From Candidatus Tectimicrobiota bacterium (GTDB lineage: Bacteria; JACPUC01): a stretch of 64,000 bases of DNA. The notes under the pieces were generated by a model. The model ran no database searches, was not told where the DNA came from, and was given only the letters and a program-made list of their open reading frames with translations. The translations under genes and the position numbers were made by a program. The DNA is taken from NCBI GenBank assembly GCA_016192455.1, contig JACPUC010000012.1, positions 62,001 to 126,000 of the forward strand, in the 5' to 3' direction. Below, piece by piece: positions 47,048-56,018 of the stretch. Each line of letters starts with the position of its first letter. The first letter of the stretch is position 1.

Positions 47048-48082
47048 ATGTTGCCAGATGTCTCAGCAGAGCGCTTGGTCGCGATCGGGCGCCGGATGCT
47101 CCTCATCCGACGATTCGAGGAGCGCCTTATCACGCTCTTCCAAGACAAAGTCTTCGTCGGCCACTACCACGTCTACATCGGCCAGGAGGCCACCGGCGTG
47201 CCGGCCATCGCGCAGTTGCGCCCCGATGACTTCCTCTTCTCGACGCACCGCAACCACGGCCATAACCTGGCGCGCGGCGTTGACCCGAAGATGCTGCTGG
47301 CGGAGATCCTTGGGCGCGTCGGAGGGATGAGCCGGGGCAAGGCCGGCACCCTGCACCTGAGCGATCCGCAGCGCGGCATCTTCCACACCTCGGCGGTGGT
47401 CGGCGGCTCGATGCCGCTGGCGACCGGCGCCGCCCTGGCGGGGAAGCAGCTTGGCAAGCAGCAGGTGAGCGTCTGCCTCTTCGGCGATGGCGCCCTCGAG
47501 GAGGGAGCCGCCTACGAGGCGATGAACCTCGCCTCGCTCTGGAAGGTGCCGATCATCTTCATCTGCGAAAATAACTGCCTGGAGGCGCGCGAGGACATCC
47601 CCGGCGCCTGGCATACCACCTGCCTCACCACCCAGCGCCTCATCGACATCGCCGCGGCCCTTGGACACTCCACCGCGGCCATCGACGGCGGCGACGTGGG
47701 CGCGATGTGGTCGGCCATGTCGCAGGCGCTCGATCGAGTGCGCGGCGGCGAAGGCCCCTGCTTCATCGAAGCCGCCACCATCCGCTGGCCCGGCAACTTC
47801 GGCTTGTGGCCGGAGCTGCCGATGGGGCTGACGAATTTGGCCTGGGTCTGGGGCGCCGGCGAGGGCCCGGCAGCGTACGAGGGCTGGTTCCGCGAGCAGG
47901 ACCCCCTGCTGCGCTACCTGCGCGAGCTGCAGGCCGCCGGGATCGCCGATCGCGACACCATCTTGGCGTGGGATGAGGCGGTGAGGAAGGAGGTCGACGC
48001 GGCAGCGCAGTTCGCCCTCGGCAGTCCCTCACCCGAGCCGGCCGAAGCCCGGCGGCATGTCTTTGTGGAGGCCGGACGATGA
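47048..48082 (+). CDS. TPP-dependent dehydrogenase E1 alpha subunit-like
   Basis: HVYIGQEA, THRNHGH, GDGALEEG...ENN TPP motif. Confidence 0.9.
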   Translation: MLPDVSAERLVAIGRRMLLIRRFEERLITLFQDKVFVGHYHVYIGQEATGVPAIAQLRPDDFLFSTHRNHGHNLARGVDPKMLLAEILGRVGGMSRGKAGTLHLSDPQRGIFHTSAVVGGSMPLATGAALAGKQLGKQQVSVCLFGDGALEEGAAYEAMNLASLWKVPIIFICENNCLEAREDIPGAWHTTCLTTQRLIDIAAALGHSTAAIDGGDVGAMWSAMSQALDRVRGGEGPCFIEAATIRWPGNFGLWPELPMGLTNLAWVWGAGEGPAAYEGWFREQDPLLRYLRELQAAGIADRDTILAWDEAVRKEVDAAAQFALGSPSPEPAEARRHVFVEAGR

Positions 48083-49056
48083 GCGAAATGACTTACGCCG
48101 AGGCCAAGGCGGCTGCACTGCGGCAGGTTCTGGAAGAGGATGAGCGCGTCACCCTCATCGGTTCCTCCTTTTTCGGGTTGAGCCCTTTTCGGCGCCTCAC
48201 CGATAGCCTGCCGGCGGAATACCCGACGCGCGTCTACAAGATTCCCATCGCCGAACTGGGCGCCTGCGGCTGCGGGGTGGGGGCGGCAATGGCGGGGCTG
48301 CGTCCCATCGTGGACATCTCCACCGCCAGCTTCATTTTCGAAGCCTGGCCGCAGGTGGTGAACGAAGCCCCGCACGTGCACTACATGTCCGGCGGCCGCG
48401 CCCGGGCGCCGGTGGTCTTCCATGTCCTCCACGGCCTGCGCGGCGGCGGCGCGGCGCAGCACTCGCACAGCCCCCAGTCGATGCTCTGGAACACGCCGGG
48501 GCTGGAGATCGTGCTGCCGGCCTCGCCGGCCGACGTCAAGGGTCTGCTGATCAGCTCCGTGCGCAGCGATAACCCCACGGTCTTCCTGGATCAGCCGGTG
48601 CTCTTCGGCATGCGGGGCGAGGTGCCGGAGGGGGATGCCGCCATTCCCCTCGGCAAGGCCGAGGTCAAACGAGCGGGCAAGGATGTCACGGTGGTGGCCA
48701 CCTCGGCGGCGGTGCAGCAGTGCCTGAAGATTGCCGCGGCGTTGGCCGGCGAAGGGATCGACGTCGAGGTCGTGGACCCGCGCACCCTCGTCCCCTTCGA
48801 CGCGGAGACGATCTACGCCTCGGTCGGCAAGACCGGGCGGCTCGTCATCGTTGATGAGACGCACCAAAGCTGCGGCGTCGCCAGTGAGATCGCCGCGCGC
48901 GTCGCGGAGGAGGCCTTCGACGCCCTGCGCGGGCCGATCCGGCGGGTCTGCACGGAGGATGTGCCCATCCCCTTCGCGCCGGTGCTGGAGACGGCGATCA
49001 GCCCGAACGAGGAGAAGATCATCCGGGCCATCAAGCTGGCGGTGGGCGCCGCGTAG
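48079..49056 (+). CDS. TPP-dependent dehydrogenase E1 beta subunit-like
   Basis: PIAELG, GLRPIV, AAQHSHS, DPRTLVP, SVGKTGRL; ATGA coupling with alpha. Confidence 0.9.
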   Translation: MSEMTYAEAKAAALRQVLEEDERVTLIGSSFFGLSPFRRLTDSLPAEYPTRVYKIPIAELGACGCGVGAAMAGLRPIVDISTASFIFEAWPQVVNEAPHVHYMSGGRARAPVVFHVLHGLRGGGAAQHSHSPQSMLWNTPGLEIVLPASPADVKGLLISSVRSDNPTVFLDQPVLFGMRGEVPEGDAAIPLGKAEVKRAGKDVTVVATSAAVQQCLKIAAALAGEGIDVEVVDPRTLVPFDAETIYASVGKTGRLVIVDETHQSCGVASEIAARVAEEAFDALRGPIRRVCTEDVPIPFAPVLETAISPNEEKIIRAIKLAVGAA

Positions 49057-49312
49057 CAGGCTGGGGAGGTGGCCCGTCGGCTGGGAGAGAGCCTTGCCCA
49101 CGTGAAGTGGTCGGTGCCGGTCCATTCAGGTGGTGCATCCAGGCCGAAGCTTCCTGCTACGCTCGCCAGGTTCACGAAGGTTGCTCGAAGCGCACAATGT
49201 CAACCTACAAGGCTTGACCCTACGTATGCGCACACTGGGGTGACGCTTCGCTGGTTTCGAACACGTAACCGAAGGCGTTGAAGTCCTAGAGGCGATGGAG
49301 TAGGAGTCTTCA

Positions 49313-49765
49313 ATGAAGAAAATCAAAGATGTCATGACAGACAGGCCCATAGTAATCAATAGCAATGCTACAGTCTTGGAAGCGCTAAAGCTCATGAGCA
49401 GCGCTGGCGAGATTCGGCACCTTCCGGTCATGGATGGGCAACAACTCGTTGGCATCGTTACGTCACGAGATCTGAAATCCTATGTCGGTCACTGGTCCAG
49501 CATGTCTATAGATGGGCTCTTAAAAAAGGAGCGTCTGGATCGTCCGATCTCGCGCTTGATGACGAGGAATGTAACAACGGTATCGCCCGAGGACTCTGTT
49601 GTCAAAGCAACCAAACTTTTTGGCAGTAAAAAGATTGGAGCGCTGCCTGTTATTGAAGATGGGAAGCTCGTCGGCATCATCAGCTATGTCGATCTCCTGA
49701 ATCGTTTCATCGTGCCTTCTATTTTAGAGACACAAGAGAAGAACCCGGAAACCAAGGAGGGGTGA
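49313..49765 (+). CDS. Stand-alone CBS-pair protein (AcuB-like) in a low-GC patch
   Basis: IRHLPV...LVGIVT and IGALPV...LVGII; AGGAG RBS; AT-rich codon usage. Confidence 0.88.
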   Translation: MKKIKDVMTDRPIVINSNATVLEALKLMSSAGEIRHLPVMDGQQLVGIVTSRDLKSYVGHWSSMSIDGLLKKERLDRPISRLMTRNVTTVSPEDSVVKATKLFGSKKIGALPVIEDGKLVGIISYVDLLNRFIVPSILETQEKNPETKEG

Positions 49766-50205
49766 TGCGCGCGTTCAGTAAGAGGAAGTTGAGCTGGGCG
49801 ATTATTGTGATGGTTTGGAGAATGAAAAGGAGTCAAATCTTCTCTTAGTTGGGCAGCAACCCGTTCTCTCACACTGACACGTAGCTTCTTTGTCAGCCCC
49901 TATTTTGATCGCATCGGATCGCACCCTCTTCTCCCACTCCAGAGATTCAAACGCCAAAGCACGCAGCAGTTACTCGCACGGTCAGGTCGTAGAAACGCTG
50001 CTCGAAAAGCATCGTGACCTTCCTCGGCGCATTTCCTGGAAATTGAATGCAAAGCGGGCAAGCCCGAAGGGCGCCAAAAGGCGCCCGGGGAGAACTTCGT
50101 GTCACTATCGAGACTGAGATTAAGACCCAGCCTTCGCAGCCGTTTGGGCCAGAGGAACTTCTTCAAAGTTTCAGTTTCCAGTTGCCTATGGCGTAATGGG
50201 ACAAC

Positions 50206-51495
50206 TCATGAACCGCGTGCTGCCGCGGCAGCGGTGGCGGCGGCCGCCACCGGGAGGATGGGGCTGACGGTGAAGCGCAGGGCGCGGTGGGCTTGGCGCA
50301 GAGCCTGCTCGACCTGCTGCGGCGAGTCGCCGCGGGCGAAGATGAAGCCGAGGTAGCTCCCCCCCTCCGGCAGCGGCAGGAGCGCCTGCGAGCTCTTCGC
50401 GGTGATGGTCACCTCGTCAATGCCGTCGACGGCGCGGGCGGCCTCAATCCCCTCCACCCGCTCGTAGATGCCGGGCCGTTCAATCGGCAGCATCATCACC
50501 CCGACGGCCCGATCCTCCCGCCGCGGCTCGATCTCCAGGCCGAGGGCGTGGCGGATGATGAGCTCCTCCAACGACATGCCGGTGCCGAAGCGCAGGGTGC
50601 GCGAGCAGAGTCCACCGATGGCGCGCGCGGCGATCTCGAGGATGCGCGGCCCCTGCGGCGTCAGGCGCAGCTCGGCGTGAATCGGTCCGCGCACGAGCCC
50701 CAGGGCGCGGCAGGCGCGGTCGACCTCCTTGACCATGGCGGCCTGCGTGGCCGCGTCTTCGCGTGACGGCGTGACGAAGAGCGTCTCCTCGAAGAACGGC
50801 CCCTCGAGCGGGTCGGGCTTGTCGAAGATCGCCAGGACGCGCAGCACGCCGTTGTCCAGCAACCCCTCCAGCGTCGCCTCGCGCCCCTCAAGGTAGCCCT
50901 CGACGAGAATCCAGTCGTCCGCCTCATCGCGCCGCACGCGCACCTCCGCGGTCCGCAGGAGCGCCGCAACGCGGCGGAAGGCGACGACGAACTCCGCCGG
51001 CCCGCCGGCCCGCACCACCCCGCGGCTGGCGGAGAGCGCCAACGGCTTCAGCACGCAGGGGTAGGCCACCTGGCGCGCGGCGTCCGCCGCATCGGCGTCC
51101 AGGGGGAAGCGCGCGAACGGCGGCACGCTCACGCCCGCGGCGCGCAGGAGCCGGCGCGCCAGGTACTTGTTGCGGCAGGCCGCGGCCGCGGTACTCGGGT
51201 TGTGGGGCAAGCCGAGCCGGGCGCTGGCCAGCGCCGCCGTGCGCACCGGCAGGTCGCCCACCGCCACGATGCCGTGGATGGGATGCTCGCGGGCGTACCG
51301 TTCGATGACGCGCGCCGCCGTCCGCGGTTGGTTGAACCGCAGCGCCAGGGCGCCATCGTGCCAGGGGTCGTCGAGGGAGTGGCAATGATCGGTGCCGAGG
51401 GTCACCGCCACGCCGAGCCGCTGGGCGGCGGCGGCGAAGTCGCGTCCCTCGTACCCCGTCGTGGCGAAGAGGAGGAGGAGCCGTTTCTCATCCAT
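50206..51495 (-). CDS. ATP-grasp protein, L-amino-acid-ligase-like
   Basis: CRNKY, YPCVLKP..LSASRGV, LVEGYLEG, HAELR, ILEIAAR..GG, C-terminal YLGFIFARG segment. Confidence 0.88.
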   Translation of the reverse strand: MDEKRLLLLFATTGYEGRDFAAAAQRLGVAVTLGTDHCHSLDDPWHDGALALRFNQPRTAARVIERYAREHPIHGIVAVGDLPVRTAALASARLGLPHNPSTAAAACRNKYLARRLLRAAGVSVPPFARFPLDADAADAARQVAYPCVLKPLALSASRGVVRAGGPAEFVVAFRRVAALLRTAEVRVRRDEADDWILVEGYLEGREATLEGLLDNGVLRVLAIFDKPDPLEGPFFEETLFVTPSREDAATQAAMVKEVDRACRALGLVRGPIHAELRLTPQGPRILEIAARAIGGLCSRTLRFGTGMSLEELIIRHALGLEIEPRREDRAVGVMMLPIERPGIYERVEGIEAARAVDGIDEVTITAKSSQALLPLPEGGSYLGFIFARGDSPQQVEQALRQAHRALRFTVSPILPVAAAATAAAAARGS

Positions 51496-51618
51496 GGCGC
51501 CGATCTTCCCGCGGGAACGTGAGGTCATCCTGATTGAGCCGGCAGCCATGCTACCCCGGCGCACCTAGGCCTCGGGCGTACCCGATCATCCCTCTGCTGC
51601 CAGTCGATCTCTACGCGG

Positions 51619-53034
51619 TTACAGGAGAGCTACCTGCTCTTCGGTCGGTTCAGCTCAGCAGTACCAGGGCTCGTTCAGGAAGGGGATGCCCTGCCTCAGC
51701 GTGCCGCGCATCGCCAGCGACGGCGGCGTCCGCCCCGCCGCCTCGTGGGCCGCCTGCCAGAGCTGCGCAAAGAGCCGCCGCCGCGTCAGGCCCTGCTGCT
51801 CCCCCTCCTTGACGAGCGCCTGCAGGGTCCAGCAGAGCGTATCCAGGCGGGGATCGCTGTGCGACCAGGGGTAGGAGAGGGAGTCGGGAGCAAAGTCGCC
51901 GACCAGGCGCTGCACCTCCTGCAGCTCCAACAGCCGCGACCCGGCAGGGAGGAGGAGACGCATGGCGAGCTGGATGGGCGCCACGTTCTCGACCAGGTCG
52001 AGCTCGACGAGCACCCGCAGGAGCTCCAGGTAGGTCTCGAAGGTCGTCCAGGGCGAGAAGGGAACGAAGGTCGGCGCCAGCGTCACCCCCGCCTCGCGGC
52101 AGCGCGCCGCCACGCGGTGGAAATCGTCGCGCGTATGCCCCTTGTCGAGGAGGCGGAGGAAACGATCATCGACCGACTCGACGGCGCTGGTCACGAAAGC
52201 GCAGCCGGTGCGGCGCAGCGTTTCGAGGTGCTCCGCATGCCGCAGCAGGTGCTGCACCTTGATCGTCACATCGTAGGTGAGGGCGGGGAACTCGTCGTGC
52301 AGCGCTTCCACCAGGGCCAGCGCGTGCCGCACGCCGTTGAAGAAGTCGGGATCGCCGAAAGTGAGGTGCCGCGCCCCCGCCGCCACCTGCTGCCGGATGT
52401 CGGCCAGGACCACCTGGCGCTGCACGATGCGGAACTGTCCGTTGTAGACGGGCACGATGGGGCAATGCCGGCAGCGGTGCTTGCAGCCGCGGCTCGCCTC
52501 GGTGTAGCCGGCGAGGCGCGTCTCGCCATCGGGGAGGAGGAGCTGGGCGTAGCGATGCAGGGGGGGCAGCCCACGGCGCTCGGGCACCTTGAAGGGGAGC
52601 TTGTCGAGGGAGATGACCGGCTCGCCCTGCGATTGGTCGCGGCGCGCGGCGCCCGGGGAGGCGCCGGCGAGACGCAGGCGCTCCACCATGCGCACCAGGC
52701 CGGGTTCGAACTCGCCGCCCAGGATGGTCTGCGCCCCGAGCCGCCTGAGGTACGCCTCGTTCATCGGCGCGTAGAGTCCGTAGAAGCAGAGGTGCGCGCG
52801 GGGATTGAGTTGCCTCACCCTGTCGAGCAGGCGCGCCGCCAGCTTGGTGGCGGTGTGCATCGGCACGTAGAAGGCCACCGCATCGGCACAACTCACCTCG
52901 TCCTCGCGCAGCGGCTCCTTCGCCAAGTCCTGGCAGGAGACGGCGACGCCCGCCTGCGTCAGCCACGCCGCGGGCGAGGCGAGGCCGAAGGGCTGGCGGC
53001 CGAGGTCGTAGGTGGAGATGAGGACAACCCGCAT
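51619..53034 (-). CDS. CUAEP-tail radical SAM selenoprotein (B12-binding-like N-domain); in-frame TGA at 51655-51657 read as Sec
   Basis: SRGCKHRCRHC motif. Past the TGA the frame continues AEPTEEQVALL-TAA, giving ...EPWYC-U-AEP...; SECIS-like hairpin follows. Confidence 0.88.
51626..51640 (-). promoter_or_regulatory. Putative bacterial SECIS hairpin
   Basis: mRNA reads UGA-N14-AGAGC-AGGUA-GCUCU, with apical GGU about 21-23 nt after the UGA. Shares GCAGGU with the E. coli fdhF SECIS as I recall it. Confidence 0.6.
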
Positions 53035-53106
53035 GGGATCGGACGTTTCTGAACGGCGCTCGGGTGAGCCTAATGAGGGATGGGAGGCCGGCCTCGCGGC
53101 GCCGGC

Positions 53107-53412
53107 TTACATCTTGCCTTGCGGCGGCACATAGCCCGGCGGCAACGCGGCATCCTCGCCAAAGAAGAACTCTTCCATCTGAGAGAGGATGAGCTCGTCC
53201 GATTCAGGCTCCGACGGCGTGAGCCGATACTCATTGATGACCATGATGAGGAACTCCTTCCACATCTCCCACGCCCGCTGCGAGACGTTCTCGTAGATGC
53301 GCGCGGCCAGCTCTTCCGGAGCCATCAGCTTGACGATCTCGTAGGTCGTCTCATCAATGCCGGGGAGCTCTTCTGACAGCTTGATGCACTTCACCATGCG
53401 CGGCTCGGCCAT
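53107..53412 (-). CDS. yggX: Fe(II)-trafficking / oxidative damage protection protein (YggX-like)
   Basis: RMVKCIKL...RIYENVSQRAWEMW..MVINEYRL...GYVPP. Confidence 0.88.
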   Translation of the reverse strand: MAEPRMVKCIKLSEELPGIDETTYEIVKLMAPEELAARIYENVSQRAWEMWKEFLIMVINEYRLTPSEPESDELILSQMEEFFFGEDAALPPGYVPPQGKM

Positions 53413-53544
53413 ACCGTGTCTCCTTGTGGCGAAACCCTTGCGCCAACGACCATGCGAAGGCGGCCCATCCTGAGCTTCAGTATAGTACACGAGCGGGGGG
53501 GAACAAGCGCTTCTGCCGCCGCGATGTCGCGCCGCCCCGCCCCC

Positions 53545-54405
53545 TCAGCGGAAGAGCGTCACCAGGCTGGCGCCCAGCACGATCAGGCAGGTGGCGGCGA
53601 CCACCCGCGTCGTGATGAACTCGCTGTCGCGCAGCAGCAGGAGGCTGAGGACCATCGAGAAGAGCGGCGCGGTGTTCATGAGGGTGGTCACCACGATGAT
53701 GTTGCCGAGCTGCAAGGACTTGAAATTGGCGTAGACCGCGACCAGGGAGAAGACGCCGGCGCCGCTGAAATGCAGGAGACTCCGCCTGTCGCCGACGAGA
53801 CCGCGGCCGTGGCTGCGCAGCAGGGAGACGCCGACGAGGCAGAGCATGCCGCTCGTGATGGTGATCGCCGCGCCGGCCATGGCATGCGGGTAGAGCTGCA
53901 GGCCAAGCTGGCGGAGATTGACCGACACGCCGAAGGTCAGGGCCGAGAGAATCGGGAAGAGGAAGGCCGCCCGTTGCCTCCGGCCTTCCTCGCGTGGCGC
54001 CGTGAGCAGCGCCACGCCACCCACGCAGACGAGGGTCCCGAGCACCAGCGGCAGCCGCGCCGGCTCGCCGAACGCCGCGATGGCGACCAGCATGGTCACG
54101 ATCGGCATGGTGGCGATCACCGGGTGGGCGCGCGTGACGCCCAGCCGGGCGATGCCAAGGAAGCCGAAGTACCTCCCCAGCGCCGGCGAGAGCAACCCGG
54201 CGAGGATGAAGATGACGAGGGCCTTGGCGGGGATGCTGTCGATCCCACCCGTCCCCAGGAGGATCGACCAGTAGACGAGAATGTTCACGAAGGTGGAGAT
54301 GACCGTTGCGGAGATCGGTGAGGCGGTGCGCATGCCCCACTTGGCGAAGATGTTGCTGGCGCCGAACCCGAAGGCGCTGAGCAGGGCGAAGGCCACCGCG
54401 AGCAT
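53545..54405 (-). CDS. DMT/EamA family transporter
   Basis: About 10 TM helices in two repeats; start taken at MLAVAF. Confidence 0.85.
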   Translation of the reverse strand: MLAVAFALLSAFGFGASNIFAKWGMRTASPISATVISTFVNILVYWSILLGTGGIDSIPAKALVIFILAGLLSPALGRYFGFLGIARLGVTRAHPVIATMPIVTMLVAIAAFGEPARLPLVLGTLVCVGGVALLTAPREEGRRQRAAFLFPILSALTFGVSVNLRQLGLQLYPHAMAGAAITITSGMLCLVGVSLLRSHGRGLVGDRRSLLHFSGAGVFSLVAVYANFKSLQLGNIIVVTTLMNTAPLFSMVLSLLLLRDSEFITTRVVAATCLIVLGASLVTLFR

Positions 54406-54626
54406 GGTTGCCTCGACAGCGGAGAGCAGGGTGCGGCGCCGAGCGAGGCCGCGGAGGCGCCCGCGCGGCCGCCGGGCAGGCGAGCGCCGGTGGACCGCCG
54501 CGAAGTTTCGCGCCATACTTCCGGCCGGCGTTGCCGGCGACGGCCCCTGAAGGGGATCGGGGCGCCCCCCACCGGGCCGGGCAGCTCCGCAGGCCCGCCC
54601 GCCGCCCTCGGCCGCGAGGAGGTACG

Positions 54627-56018
54627 ATGACCGTCGATCTCGCCATTGTCAATGGTACGGTGGTCACACCCGCCGGCCCTCAGCCGCTCACGGTCGCGGT
54701 GCGCCAGGAACGTATCGTTGCCCTCAGCGATCGGGCGCATTGCCCCGCGGCGCGCGAGATCCTCGACGCGAGCGATCTGCACGTGCTTCCCGGGCTGGTG
54801 GAGGGGCACGTCCACTTCCGTGAACCGGGCCTGACTCAGAAGGAGGACTTCGGCAGCGGCTCGGCGGCCGCGGTCTGCGGCGGGGTGACGACGGTGATCG
54901 ACATGCCGAACACCGTGCCGCCCACCGCCGACGCGCAGAGCCTGCGGCAAAAGCAAGCCCTGGCGGAGGCCAAGTCGTTGGTTGATTTCGGGCTGCTGGG
55001 GGTCATCCTGCCGAACAACCTGCGGCAGCTCCGCGGCCTGGTGGAGGCCGGCGCCCTGGGGTTGAAGGTCTTCATGGGGATGACGGTGGGCAATCTGCCG
55101 GCGCCCGAGGACGGCGACATCCTCGAGGCCTGGAGGCTGGCCGCAGAGCTGGGAATTCCGGTGGCGGTGCACGCCGAGAGCAGCGTCCTTGTGCACCACT
55201 GCACCGAACGGCTGCGCGCCGGCGGCCGCAGCGACGCCCTGGCGCACTATGAAGCCCGCCCCGAGATCGCCGAAGAGGAGGCGATCCAGCGCGCCATCCT
55301 CCTGGCGGCGGCGGCGGGCGCGCGCCTGCACGTCCTGCACGTCAGCACGGCCCAGGGGGCGGCGCTGGTGGGGGCGGCGAAACGCCGCGGCGGCGCGGTG
55401 AGCGCCGAGACGACGCCGCACTACCTGCTCTTGCAGAGCGCCGACGCCGCGCGCCTCGGCAACACCATGAAGATCAACCCGCCGGTGCGCGCCGCCGGCC
55501 ACGCGGAGCAGCTCTGGCAGGCCCTGCGGGGCGGCGCGATTGACAGCATCGCCACCGACCACGCTCCCCACCTGCCGGAAGAGAAGCGCCGGCGGAACGT
55601 CTGGGAGGCCCCGTCGGGGTTCCCCGGCGTGGAGACAGCCCTCCCCCTCATGCTCACCCAGGTGAACGCCGGGCGCATGCGCCTCGAGGAGTACGTGCGC
55701 TGGCACTGCGAGAACCCGGCGCGCATCTGGGGACTCTACCCCCGCAAAGGGGTGATCCAGGTCGGCAGCGACGCCGACCTGACCCTCGTCGATCTCTCCC
55801 GCCGCGACGTCATCAGGGCGGCGAACCTGCACAGCAAGAGCAAGGTAACGCCCTATGAGGGGTGGGAGGTGCAAGGCGTGCCGGTCTGCACCCTGGTGCG
55901 GGGCCAGATCGTCATGCGGGAGGGACAGCTCGTGGGCAGGCCGCGGGGACGGATGCTCTGGCCAAGCCGCGAGGCAAGGGCGGGCAGGGCCTCTGATGAC
56001 GCCGCGCGACTCGCATGA
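54627..56018 (+). CDS. Allantoinase/dihydroorotase-family cyclic amidohydrolase
   Basis: [51 protein letters not shown]. Confidence 0.9.
   Translation: MTVDLAIVNGTVVTPAGPQPLTVAVRQERIVALSDRAHCPAAREILDASDLHVLPGLVEGHVHFREPGLTQKEDFGSGSAAAVCGGVTTVIDMPNTVPPTADAQSLRQKQALAEAKSLVDFGLLGVILPNNLRQLRGLVEAGALGLKVFMGMTVGNLPAPEDGDILEAWRLAAELGIPVAVHAESSVLVHHCTERLRAGGRSDALAHYEARPEIAEEEAIQRAILLAAAAGARLHVLHVSTAQGAALVGAAKRRGGAVSAETTPHYLLLQSADAARLGNTMKINPPVRAAGHAEQLWQALRGGAIDSIATDHAPHLPEEKRRRNVWEAPSGFPGVETALPLMLTQVNAGRMRLEEYVRWHCENPARIWGLYPRKGVIQVGSDADLTLVDLSRRDVIRAANLHSKSKVTPYEGWEVQGVPVCTLVRGQIVMREGQLVGRPRGRMLWPSREARAGRASDDAARLA

Follow-up and report, generated by a model that had tools for sequence, protein, structure and literature searches.

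The gene row and its in-frame TGA codon

We analyzed a 64,000-nucleotide stretch of contig JACPUC010000012.1 (positions 62,001 to 126,000) from the genome of a Candidatus Tectimicrobiota bacterium, referred to below as the window, in whose numbering all coordinates are given. Our subject is a row of four long co-oriented open reading frames (ORFs) on the minus strand (50206-54516), and in particular a gene for a radical S-adenosylmethionine (SAM) enzyme with a putative selenocysteine (Sec) residue near its C-terminus. In the direction of transcription, the row consists of an EamA/DMT (drug/metabolite transporter) gene (53545..54405, with a possible start as far as 54516), a YggX-type Fe(2+)-trafficking/oxidative-damage-protection gene (53107..53412, 101 aa), the radical SAM gene directly downstream of it (51619..53034, 471 aa including Sec460), and a gene for an ATP-grasp enzyme of the L-amino-acid-ligase type (50206..51495, 429 aa). 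The intergenic gaps are 132 nt (transporter gene to yggX), 72 and 123 nt, in agreement with an earlier reading of this DNA (the original prediction), which had described four co-oriented minus-strand genes separated by about 70-130 bp. A simple scan found no terminator-like site between the four genes. The yggX ATG (53412) lies 6 nt downstream of AAGGAGA. The ATP-grasp gene has other in-frame starts up to a GTG at 51564; we placed its start at the ATG at 51495 because homologs align from approximately residue 24 of the longest ORF.

Under genetic code table 11, the radical SAM ORF has 459 aa and stops at a TGA (51655-51657, minus strand) directly after NEPWYC. Reading this TGA as Sec (U) extends the protein to a C-terminus of PWYC-U-AEPTEEQVALL, followed by a TAA (51619-51621), and would place a Cys459-Sec460 pair twelve residues from the end of the enzyme. 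A scan of genome contigs returned 516 relatives of the radical SAM gene, and the best 80 loci (58-65% identity) were analyzed. These loci are closely related and do not count as independent. They are mostly metagenome-assembled genomes labelled Acidobacteriota; the other labels are Methylomirabilota, Nitrospinota, Tectomicrobia, Latescibacterota, Chloroflexota, Dormibacterota, Eremiobacterota, Verrucomicrobiota and Proteobacteria. At the homologous position we found TGA followed by AEP in 65 of the 80 loci and a Cys codon in 13; of the remaining two, one (L009) is cut by a contig edge and the other (L036) reads AEA. Both the stretch after the TGA (A-E-P-T-x-[DE]-Q) and a hydrophobic true C-terminus are conserved among the relatives.

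We then compared the nucleotides downstream of the codon in 67 TGA-containing sequences (the window and 66 loci, L009 being too short). Of these, 52 can form a hairpin that starts about 16 nt past the UGA, with 4-8 contiguous pairs and the loop AGUU or AGGUN; in the remaining 15, a single mismatch interrupts this hairpin. At the same position, sequences with a Cys codon (13) reach a median of 1 pair and at most 4. The letters of the stem vary while pairing is kept (e.g., GGGGACC/GGUCCCC versus GAAGAGC/GCUCUUU). In the window, the candidate Sec insertion sequence (SECIS-like hairpin; 51624..51642, minus strand, 16-34 nt after the U of UGA) has the stem AGAGC/GCUCU of five contiguous pairs, a further G-C pair past a mismatch, and the loop AGGUA. 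Folded alone, the 76 nt around the UGA of the window did no better than shuffled sequences (z +1.64), so the window hairpin is convincing through the comparison across loci; Rfam at gathering thresholds gave no family in the window, and thus no curated SECIS model stands behind it. The same genome contains selA (596 bits), selB (366 bits), selD (389 bits) and tRNA-Sec, with selA and selB side by side. Given the conserved AEPT..Q tail, the hairpin that follows TGA and not Cys codons, and this Sec machinery, the in-frame TGA very probably encodes Sec. The selD match itself (C3:190907-191827, outside the window) has one in-frame TGA, and the SelD of this genome is probably a selenoprotein too.

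Genes of this kind are routinely truncated at the Sec codon in annotations, as in the 459-aa ORF of the window. A second example came from a protein search of plasmid records, which returned 37 records: 36 encode proteins with the RCCLKC tail of the ArsL family, and one encodes a CUAEP tail. The latter is a gene on the megaplasmid of Thermomicrobium roseum DSM 5159, a cultured thermophile (L100:8935-10460, 43.6% identity to the window protein). Its annotation stops at a TGA, past which AEP and a GGACCC/GGGUCC hairpin can be read, and it probably encodes a selenoprotein that was annotated short.

The read-through protein (469 residues in this comparison) scored 628.7 bits against NF040546, the model for CUAEP/CCAEP-tail radical SAM (seleno)proteins (cut-off 500), with a match spanning profile positions 1-466 of 468; a genome-wide search gave 622.6 bits. 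It also matches the Pfam radical SAM domain PF04055 (51.8 bits). To judge by these profiles it is a full-length member of the family with the defining tail, as the original prediction had proposed in calling it a CUAEP-tail Sec radical SAM enzyme. In the family alignment, the cluster motif CX3CX2C (C184/C188/C191) and the N-terminal block GxQPFGLASPAAWL are invariant. The same holds, across 56 read-through sequences, for C278, C459, position 460, A461 and E462, while P463 and T464 are at least 90% conserved. NF040546 is a large family, with at least 8000 protein clusters at E<=1e-10; the nearest homologs of the window protein are 66-67% identical to it. The single paper found to name the family, Haft 2022 (10.1101/2022.07.06.499078), calls it uncharacterized, in a passage that names neither a ligase nor a YggX partner; the term "ATP-grasp" is absent from the text of this paper. 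Likewise, "CCAEP" does not occur in a 2026 review of prokaryotic selenoproteins.

A conserved module with a ligase and an iron-sulfur helper

The ATP-grasp protein matches three Pfam models above their cut-offs: ATP-grasp_4 (PF13535, 91.4 bits), LAL_C2 (PF18603, 64.0 bits) and ATPgrasp_N (PF18130, 41.5 bits). Its nearest solved relative is BL00235 of Bacillus licheniformis (3VOT; E 1.2e-42), which aligns end to end with it, over residues 24-402 of 429; BacD follows at 5e-14. The LAL_C2 domain and the 3VOT match bear out its earlier assignment to the L-amino-acid ligases. BL00235 is nevertheless a distant relative, and the window protein reaches no NCBIfam ligase model (BacD, 45.7 bits against a cut-off of 850; DdaF, 36.3 against 840). 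BL00235 is described as forming Met-Gly and Met-Met (PMC6920838). Such dipeptides, with methionine at the N-terminus, would fit a methionine-like substrate for the window ligase.

Of the 80 loci, 67 have a ligase ortholog no more than 4 kb from the radical SAM gene; the ortholog is downstream in 65, on the same strand, and upstream in two, with a median gap of 137 nt (range 17-945). Only four of the 13 loci without a ligase gene have at least 3 kb of flanking sequence on both sides. We searched ten genomes with a ligase-free radical SAM locus, and eight hold an ortholog elsewhere (51-53% identity, E<=1e-117); none was found in the other two, G102 and G109, the latter a 1.7-Mb assembly. Nor did we find a ligase ortholog on the Thermomicrobium roseum megaplasmid, in a search of that replicon.

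To sample more broadly, we used 400 bacterial genomes related to that of the window at the "same domain" level, with 1-3 genomes per family. A search restricted to the phylum had returned only the genome itself, and all relatives were labelled "same domain", so that the lineage is without near relatives among the species genomes searched. The NF040546 cut-off was passed in 21 of the 400 genomes, 19 of them with one in-frame TGA and two without. Beyond these 21, the sample gave no radical SAM match down to E 1e-40, and hence no ArsL candidate. The window ligase had a match at E<=1e-40 in 24 genomes, and these include all 21 radical SAM-positive genomes (36-56% identity). The three matches among the 379 negative genomes are a piece of 269 residues at the start of a contig (G323, 53% identity, an assembly of 630 contigs) and two proteins of 33% identity (G253 and G400). 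A first pass on 100 of these genomes had given four radical SAM-positive genomes, and the same four were ligase-positive. Both enzyme genes share one locus in 12 of the 21 genomes, in co-directional, convergent and divergent arrangements, and the order of the window (yggX, radical SAM, ligase) recurs in G117 and G276. The radical SAM and ATP-grasp genes are thus a real pair, inherited together across bacteria and not placed together by chance, and the adjacency on which the original prediction leaned is conserved beyond this genome.

Two side observations concern the ligase genes. G117 and G276, which belong to one family, each have another ligase gene (50% identity), which lies far from the module and lacks a helper gene. 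Ligase paralogs in G253 (33% identity) and G036 (32%), which neighbour genes for UvrA, a GltD-like oxidoreductase and a diguanylate cyclase, provided no lead.

The product of the gene upstream of the radical SAM gene passes the equivalog cut-off for YggX (NF003817, 90.7 bits against 74), matches PF04362, of which it is the single match in this genome, and keeps the cysteine (C9) that is invariant in 53 sequences. It has a 7-residue insertion around EIVKLMA that is absent from 52 aligned homologs. The original prediction had considered YggX a possibly incidental neighbour, and here our results differ from it. Among the 80 loci, YggX is found in 62 (in 56 convergent, beyond the ligase gene, and in six upstream on the same strand, as in the window), and an Nfu-type carrier is found in five, upstream on the same strand, so that 67 loci have one or the other. 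In the broad sample, 19 of the 21 positive genomes have YggX or Nfu about 1 kb or less from at least one of the enzyme genes, the exceptions being G283 and G284. Nfu-type carriers (PF01106, with or without PF01521) thus fill the place of YggX in other genomes, four of which (G040, G077, G282 and G169) have a short Nfu gene between the genes for the enzymes. PF04362 itself was found in 30 of the 400 genomes, namely in 9 of the 21 positives versus 21 of the 379 others, and in eight of these nine positives the YggX gene lies 43-236 bp from the radical SAM gene, including three genomes in which the ligase gene is far away. Enterobacterial yggX adjoins mutY; by contrast, 8 of the 30 YggX genes of this sample stand directly beside a CUAEP radical SAM gene. 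With one of these helpers next to the enzymes in so many of the sampled genomes (19 of 21), YggX is part of the module. In G112, both helpers occur, YggX beside the radical SAM gene and NfuA beside the ligase gene.

A further family, DUF169 (PF02596), occurs in 13 of the 80 loci (e.g., L080:4302-5018) and also in G169 and G319. Its gene is placed next to the two enzyme genes, or between them, in loci with the labels Acidobacteriota and Latescibacterota. We are highly confident of a module of three genes, a radical SAM enzyme, a ligase and either YggX or Nfu, to which DUF169 is sometimes added. A literature search, to which subscription journals and supplements were closed, found no paper describing this module, nor any joining a radical SAM enzyme, YggX and an ATP-grasp protein.

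Comparison with ArsL and proposed function

A sequence search of solved chains detected no relative of the radical SAM protein. Its fold was examined in an AlphaFold2 model built from the 56 read-through sequences (mean pLDDT, the per-residue confidence score, 93; 63-79 in the last 30 residues). The predicted fold is an N-terminal Rossmann-like domain joined to a radical SAM barrel. In Foldseek searches AprD4, OxsB, TsrM and MgmA ranked first (E 1e-18 to 1e-14, TM 0.59-0.66); they have the same two-domain layout, but are just 12-19% identical to the window protein. The closest match, AprD4, is cobalamin-free, though OxsB and TsrM also match; MiaB and RimO are found behind AprD4, OxsB and TsrM. 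The window protein has weak NCBIfam matches to B12-binding radical SAM families. PF02310 was not detected in it at E<=0.001, and is listed for some of its homologs.

ArsL, whose family is the sister of the CUAEP family, forms the C-As bond in the biosynthesis of the arsenic antibiotic arsinothricin. Among radical SAM enzymes with the canonical motif, a 3-amino-3-carboxypropyl (ACP) radical has so far been demonstrated for ArsL alone. The window protein is 29-35% identical to five RCCLKC-tail proteins over about 410 residues, and a MAFFT alignment of these five with twelve CUAEP-family sequences shows core motifs common to both. This supports the relationship with ArsL noted in the original prediction, the window protein being an ArsL paralog. 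The two families share the two-domain architecture, the CX3CX2C motif and an adjacent chalcogen pair near the C-terminus. The CC of RCCLKC falls in the same columns as the CU of the window family, a correspondence to be read with care as it lies at the end of the alignment. Each family has six conserved Cys/Sec residues, but the third one outside the cluster motif is differently placed: C278 is a Val in all five ArsL-family proteins, and the ArsL tail offers three ligands, where the window tail C-U-A-E-P-T..Q would offer two, one of them selenium. The CUAEP family is also much the larger of the two and far more widespread than ArsL, given its presence in 21 of the 400 sampled genomes.

ArsL cleaves SAM to give methylthioadenosine (MTA) together with an ACP radical, and it binds As(III) through its tail; without the tail, SAM is still cleaved but no product is formed (10.1101/2024.02.01.577332). 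According to two further sources, all three tail cysteines bind arsenic (10.64898/2026.04.29.721666), and ArsL accepts methylated arsenic, an engineered variant with a two-cysteine tail being the most efficient on methylarsenic (PMC13598754). This variant resembles the natural two-residue CU/CC tail of the window family.

We opened the loci of five of the 36 RCCLKC-tail records (L101-L105, plasmids of Priestia megaterium, Bacillus cereus AH820, Alicyclobacillus acidocaldarius, Klebsiella pneumoniae and Pantoea agglomerans), for which the plasmid gene tables are incomplete. All five have an ATP-grasp gene within 3.3 kb of the radical SAM gene. In Klebsiella and Pantoea the order is radical SAM, a 90-aa protein, ATP-grasp, a major facilitator superfamily transporter, ArsM, a CobW-like GTPase and an aquaporin; in the Bacillota loci, a small protein of the carboxymuconolactone decarboxylase family precedes the ATP-grasp gene. 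ArsR, ArsN1 and arsenic pumps surround the ArsL-family genes in the loci opened, and the small protein of these loci has 90-100 aa. LAL_C2 was detected in the Bacillus ATP-grasp protein (32.9 bits, cut-off 29.4) and fell just under the cut-off in that of Alicyclobacillus (27.1 bits). By Pfam or by comparison with the window ligase, four of the five are ligase-like; the Priestia protein was compared by BLASTP and a PDB search only, with 3VOT as its top solved match. Among themselves these ATP-grasp proteins show 32-69% identity, as against 25-28% to the window ligase. The sister family, with its explicit arsenic setting, thus shows the same combination of this kind of radical SAM enzyme and a dipeptide-type ligase. 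Our literature search found no paper linking arsinothricin clusters to ATP-grasp ligases. A peptide form of the arsenic amino acid may be the product of such arsinothricin-type clusters on plasmids of Bacillus, Priestia, Alicyclobacillus, Klebsiella and Pantoea.

With these comparisons in hand, we tentatively propose, giving the idea slightly less than even weight, that the module transfers an ACP group to a soft heteroatom bound by the tail and then builds a dipeptide from the product. The radical SAM enzyme would cleave SAM at the C-gamma-S bond in the manner of ArsL, releasing MTA, and would move the ACP group to a soft heteroatom substrate held on the flexible Cys-Sec tail, with the family-invariant Cys278 perhaps acting as the third ligand. 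The product would be a methionine-like 2-amino-4-X-butanoate, which the ligase would couple to a second amino acid. YggX would supply iron to, or repair, the oxygen-labile [4Fe-4S] cluster, a role that would fall to Nfu-type carriers elsewhere. X may be methylated or inorganic As(III), another metalloid, Se or S. The idea of a metalloid receives some indirect support from the alignment of CU with CC, the ligases in ArsL loci and the two-cysteine ArsL tail. Arsenic in particular we hold to be considerably less probable than the proposal as a whole, because no arsenic gene travels with the module. In the window itself, tblastn with ArsM, ArsN1, Acr3, ArsC, ArsD, ArsR and ArsI as queries (E<=1e-8) found no ars gene, as had been noted before; matches to Acr3, ArsC and ArsR were found on other contigs of the same genome.

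Several of our results weigh against this proposal. The window protein scored 287.7 bits against the ArsL model NF040542, below its cut-off of 450, and has no RCCLKC tail. The two enzyme genes are apart in 9 of the 21 sampled genomes, and helper genes also accompany ligase genes outside the radical SAM locus: Nfu in G112, G213, G271 and G311, and YggX in L092, L093 and L096, with a partial match in L095. A helper that serves the radical SAM enzyme does not account for these cases. Moreover, no arsenic, mercury or selenium-metabolite gene, and no methyltransferase, resistance gene or transporter, is a conserved neighbour of the module. ArsL loci have ArsM, ArsR, ArsN, an aquaporin and arsenic pumps; the window family has Fe-S helpers instead, and its lack of arsenic, resistance and transport neighbours sets it apart from an antibiotic cluster as well. 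The identity of 58-67% maintained between phyla suggests a housekeeping-like role rather than a secondary metabolite. Finally, the two radical SAM-ligase pairings may have arisen separately, since BL00235 is closer to the window ligase than are the ligases of the ArsL loci.

The frequency of the helper genes also speaks for a different chemistry, which we think unlikely but worth weighing, in which Cys278, Cys459 and Sec460 would hold a sacrificial auxiliary Fe-S(e) cluster. This cluster would donate S or Se to give a thio- or seleno-amino acid (e.g., a homocysteine-like one), the ligase would convert it into a small thiol or selenol dipeptide, and Nfu or YggX would rebuild the cluster at each turnover. 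NfuA is known to rebuild the sacrificed cluster of lipoyl synthase. The near-obligate presence of Fe-S carrier or iron-donor genes (19/21), with the short Nfu between the enzymes in four genomes, agrees with such chemistry, as do the three conserved Cys/Sec residues beyond CX3CX2C, of which C278 is absent from ArsL. MiaB and RimO are among the structural neighbours, though behind AprD4, OxsB and TsrM. Against it, removal of the ArsL tail left the iron and sulfide content unchanged (10.1101/2024.02.01.577332), and making homocysteine from SAM would be circular. The family also has natural Cys-for-Sec variants (13/80), and the tail atom itself is therefore not the element transferred. The two-domain fold shared with AprD4, OxsB, TsrM and MgmA points in another direction, to ordinary 5'-deoxyadenosyl or methyl transfer chemistry on a small molecule, with the Cys-Sec tail as a redox or hydrogen-donor arm, as in thioredoxin reductase; the ligase would then belong to the same pathway but would not act on an ACP-derived amino acid. 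The ArsL score below the cut-off agrees with this, as do the weak matches to B12-binding families and the precomputed PF02310 in some homologs. PF02310 was not detected in the window protein, however, the tail CU aligns with the substrate-binding CC of ArsL, and ArsL, the only characterised close relative (29-35% over the whole catalytic core), cleaves SAM non-canonically. We consider this explanation improbable.

In another explanation, the two enzymes would modify proteins or peptides, and YggX and Nfu, the constant neighbours and both small proteins with invariant cysteines, could themselves be the targets; the enzyme's own tail or a ribosomal peptide could also play this part in place of a free amino acid. 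Both the radical SAM and the ATP-grasp superfamilies include peptide-modifying members. Nevertheless, YggX and Nfu interchange, and both are missing in 2 of the 21 genomes, so neither is an obligate substrate; the ATP-grasp protein carries the ligase-specific LAL_C2 and aligns end to end with a ligase of free amino acids. We found no short conserved ORF in the 72-132 nt gaps of the window and no further conserved small protein among the neighbours. A ribosomally made peptide that is modified after translation was rejected for want of a conserved short ORF, and we judge protein or peptide modification in general to be very unlikely.

A more specific and much more speculative suggestion is a long shot in our estimation: the module may make a yet unseen dipeptide, with an N-terminal methionine analogue containing Se, S or a metalloid, that serves iron or Fe-S homeostasis and is not an antibiotic. 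The radical enzyme would use up or damage an Fe-S cluster at each turnover, and the molecule would act either as a selenol or thiol of low molecular weight or by carrying metal. This would account both for Fe-S carriers being the only constant neighbours and for their staying with unlinked ligase genes. If it were true, approximately 1 in 20 bacterial species, mostly from uncultured soil, sediment and groundwater lineages, would make the molecule. Whatever its product, the question of the CUAEP family narrows to three proteins: the enzyme, a dedicated amino-acid ligase and an Fe-S helper. This narrowing rests on the dedicated ligase and helper, on the Cys-Sec pair where ArsL binds arsenic, and on the ligases in ArsL loci.

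Other neighbouring genes

The first gene of the row encodes a transporter with two stretches matching Pfam EamA (E 1.4e-24), and at least ten paralogs of it are found elsewhere in the genome. None of the 80 loci has an EamA relative within 10 kb, and EamA is not among the recurrent neighbours in 30 diverse genomes. The EamA gene may be co-transcribed here, yet it is a local neighbour only, outside the conserved module, as the original prediction had allowed in calling the DMT gene possibly incidental. The row is flanked by an amidohydrolase gene (54627-56018), divergent from it, and by a gene with two CBS domains (49313-49765), convergent on the ligase gene; the operon can therefore comprise four genes at most.

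In about 40 of the 80 loci, an aconitase gene (Pfam-confirmed; e.g., L010:7215-9989) is divergent from the radical SAM gene; its product, too, is an Fe-S enzyme sensitive to oxidation. Clusters of glucose-6-phosphate dehydrogenase and glucokinase, named from their sequences, were found almost wholly in Acidobacteria-labelled loci. We set these three aside as partners, as lineage synteny. A neighbour cluster of ATPases of the ATP-binding cassette type was a clustering artefact. When the neighbours in the diverse loci were clustered, no further family reached three genomes.

A listing of sequencing runs gave DNA runs from groundwater and soil metagenomes, four of which may be the source, and no RNA run. 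The window is G+C-rich, with 61-72% per 2-kb bin. The lowest value (0.61, against 0.64-0.72 elsewhere) is found in the bin 48001-50000, which contains the CBS gene.

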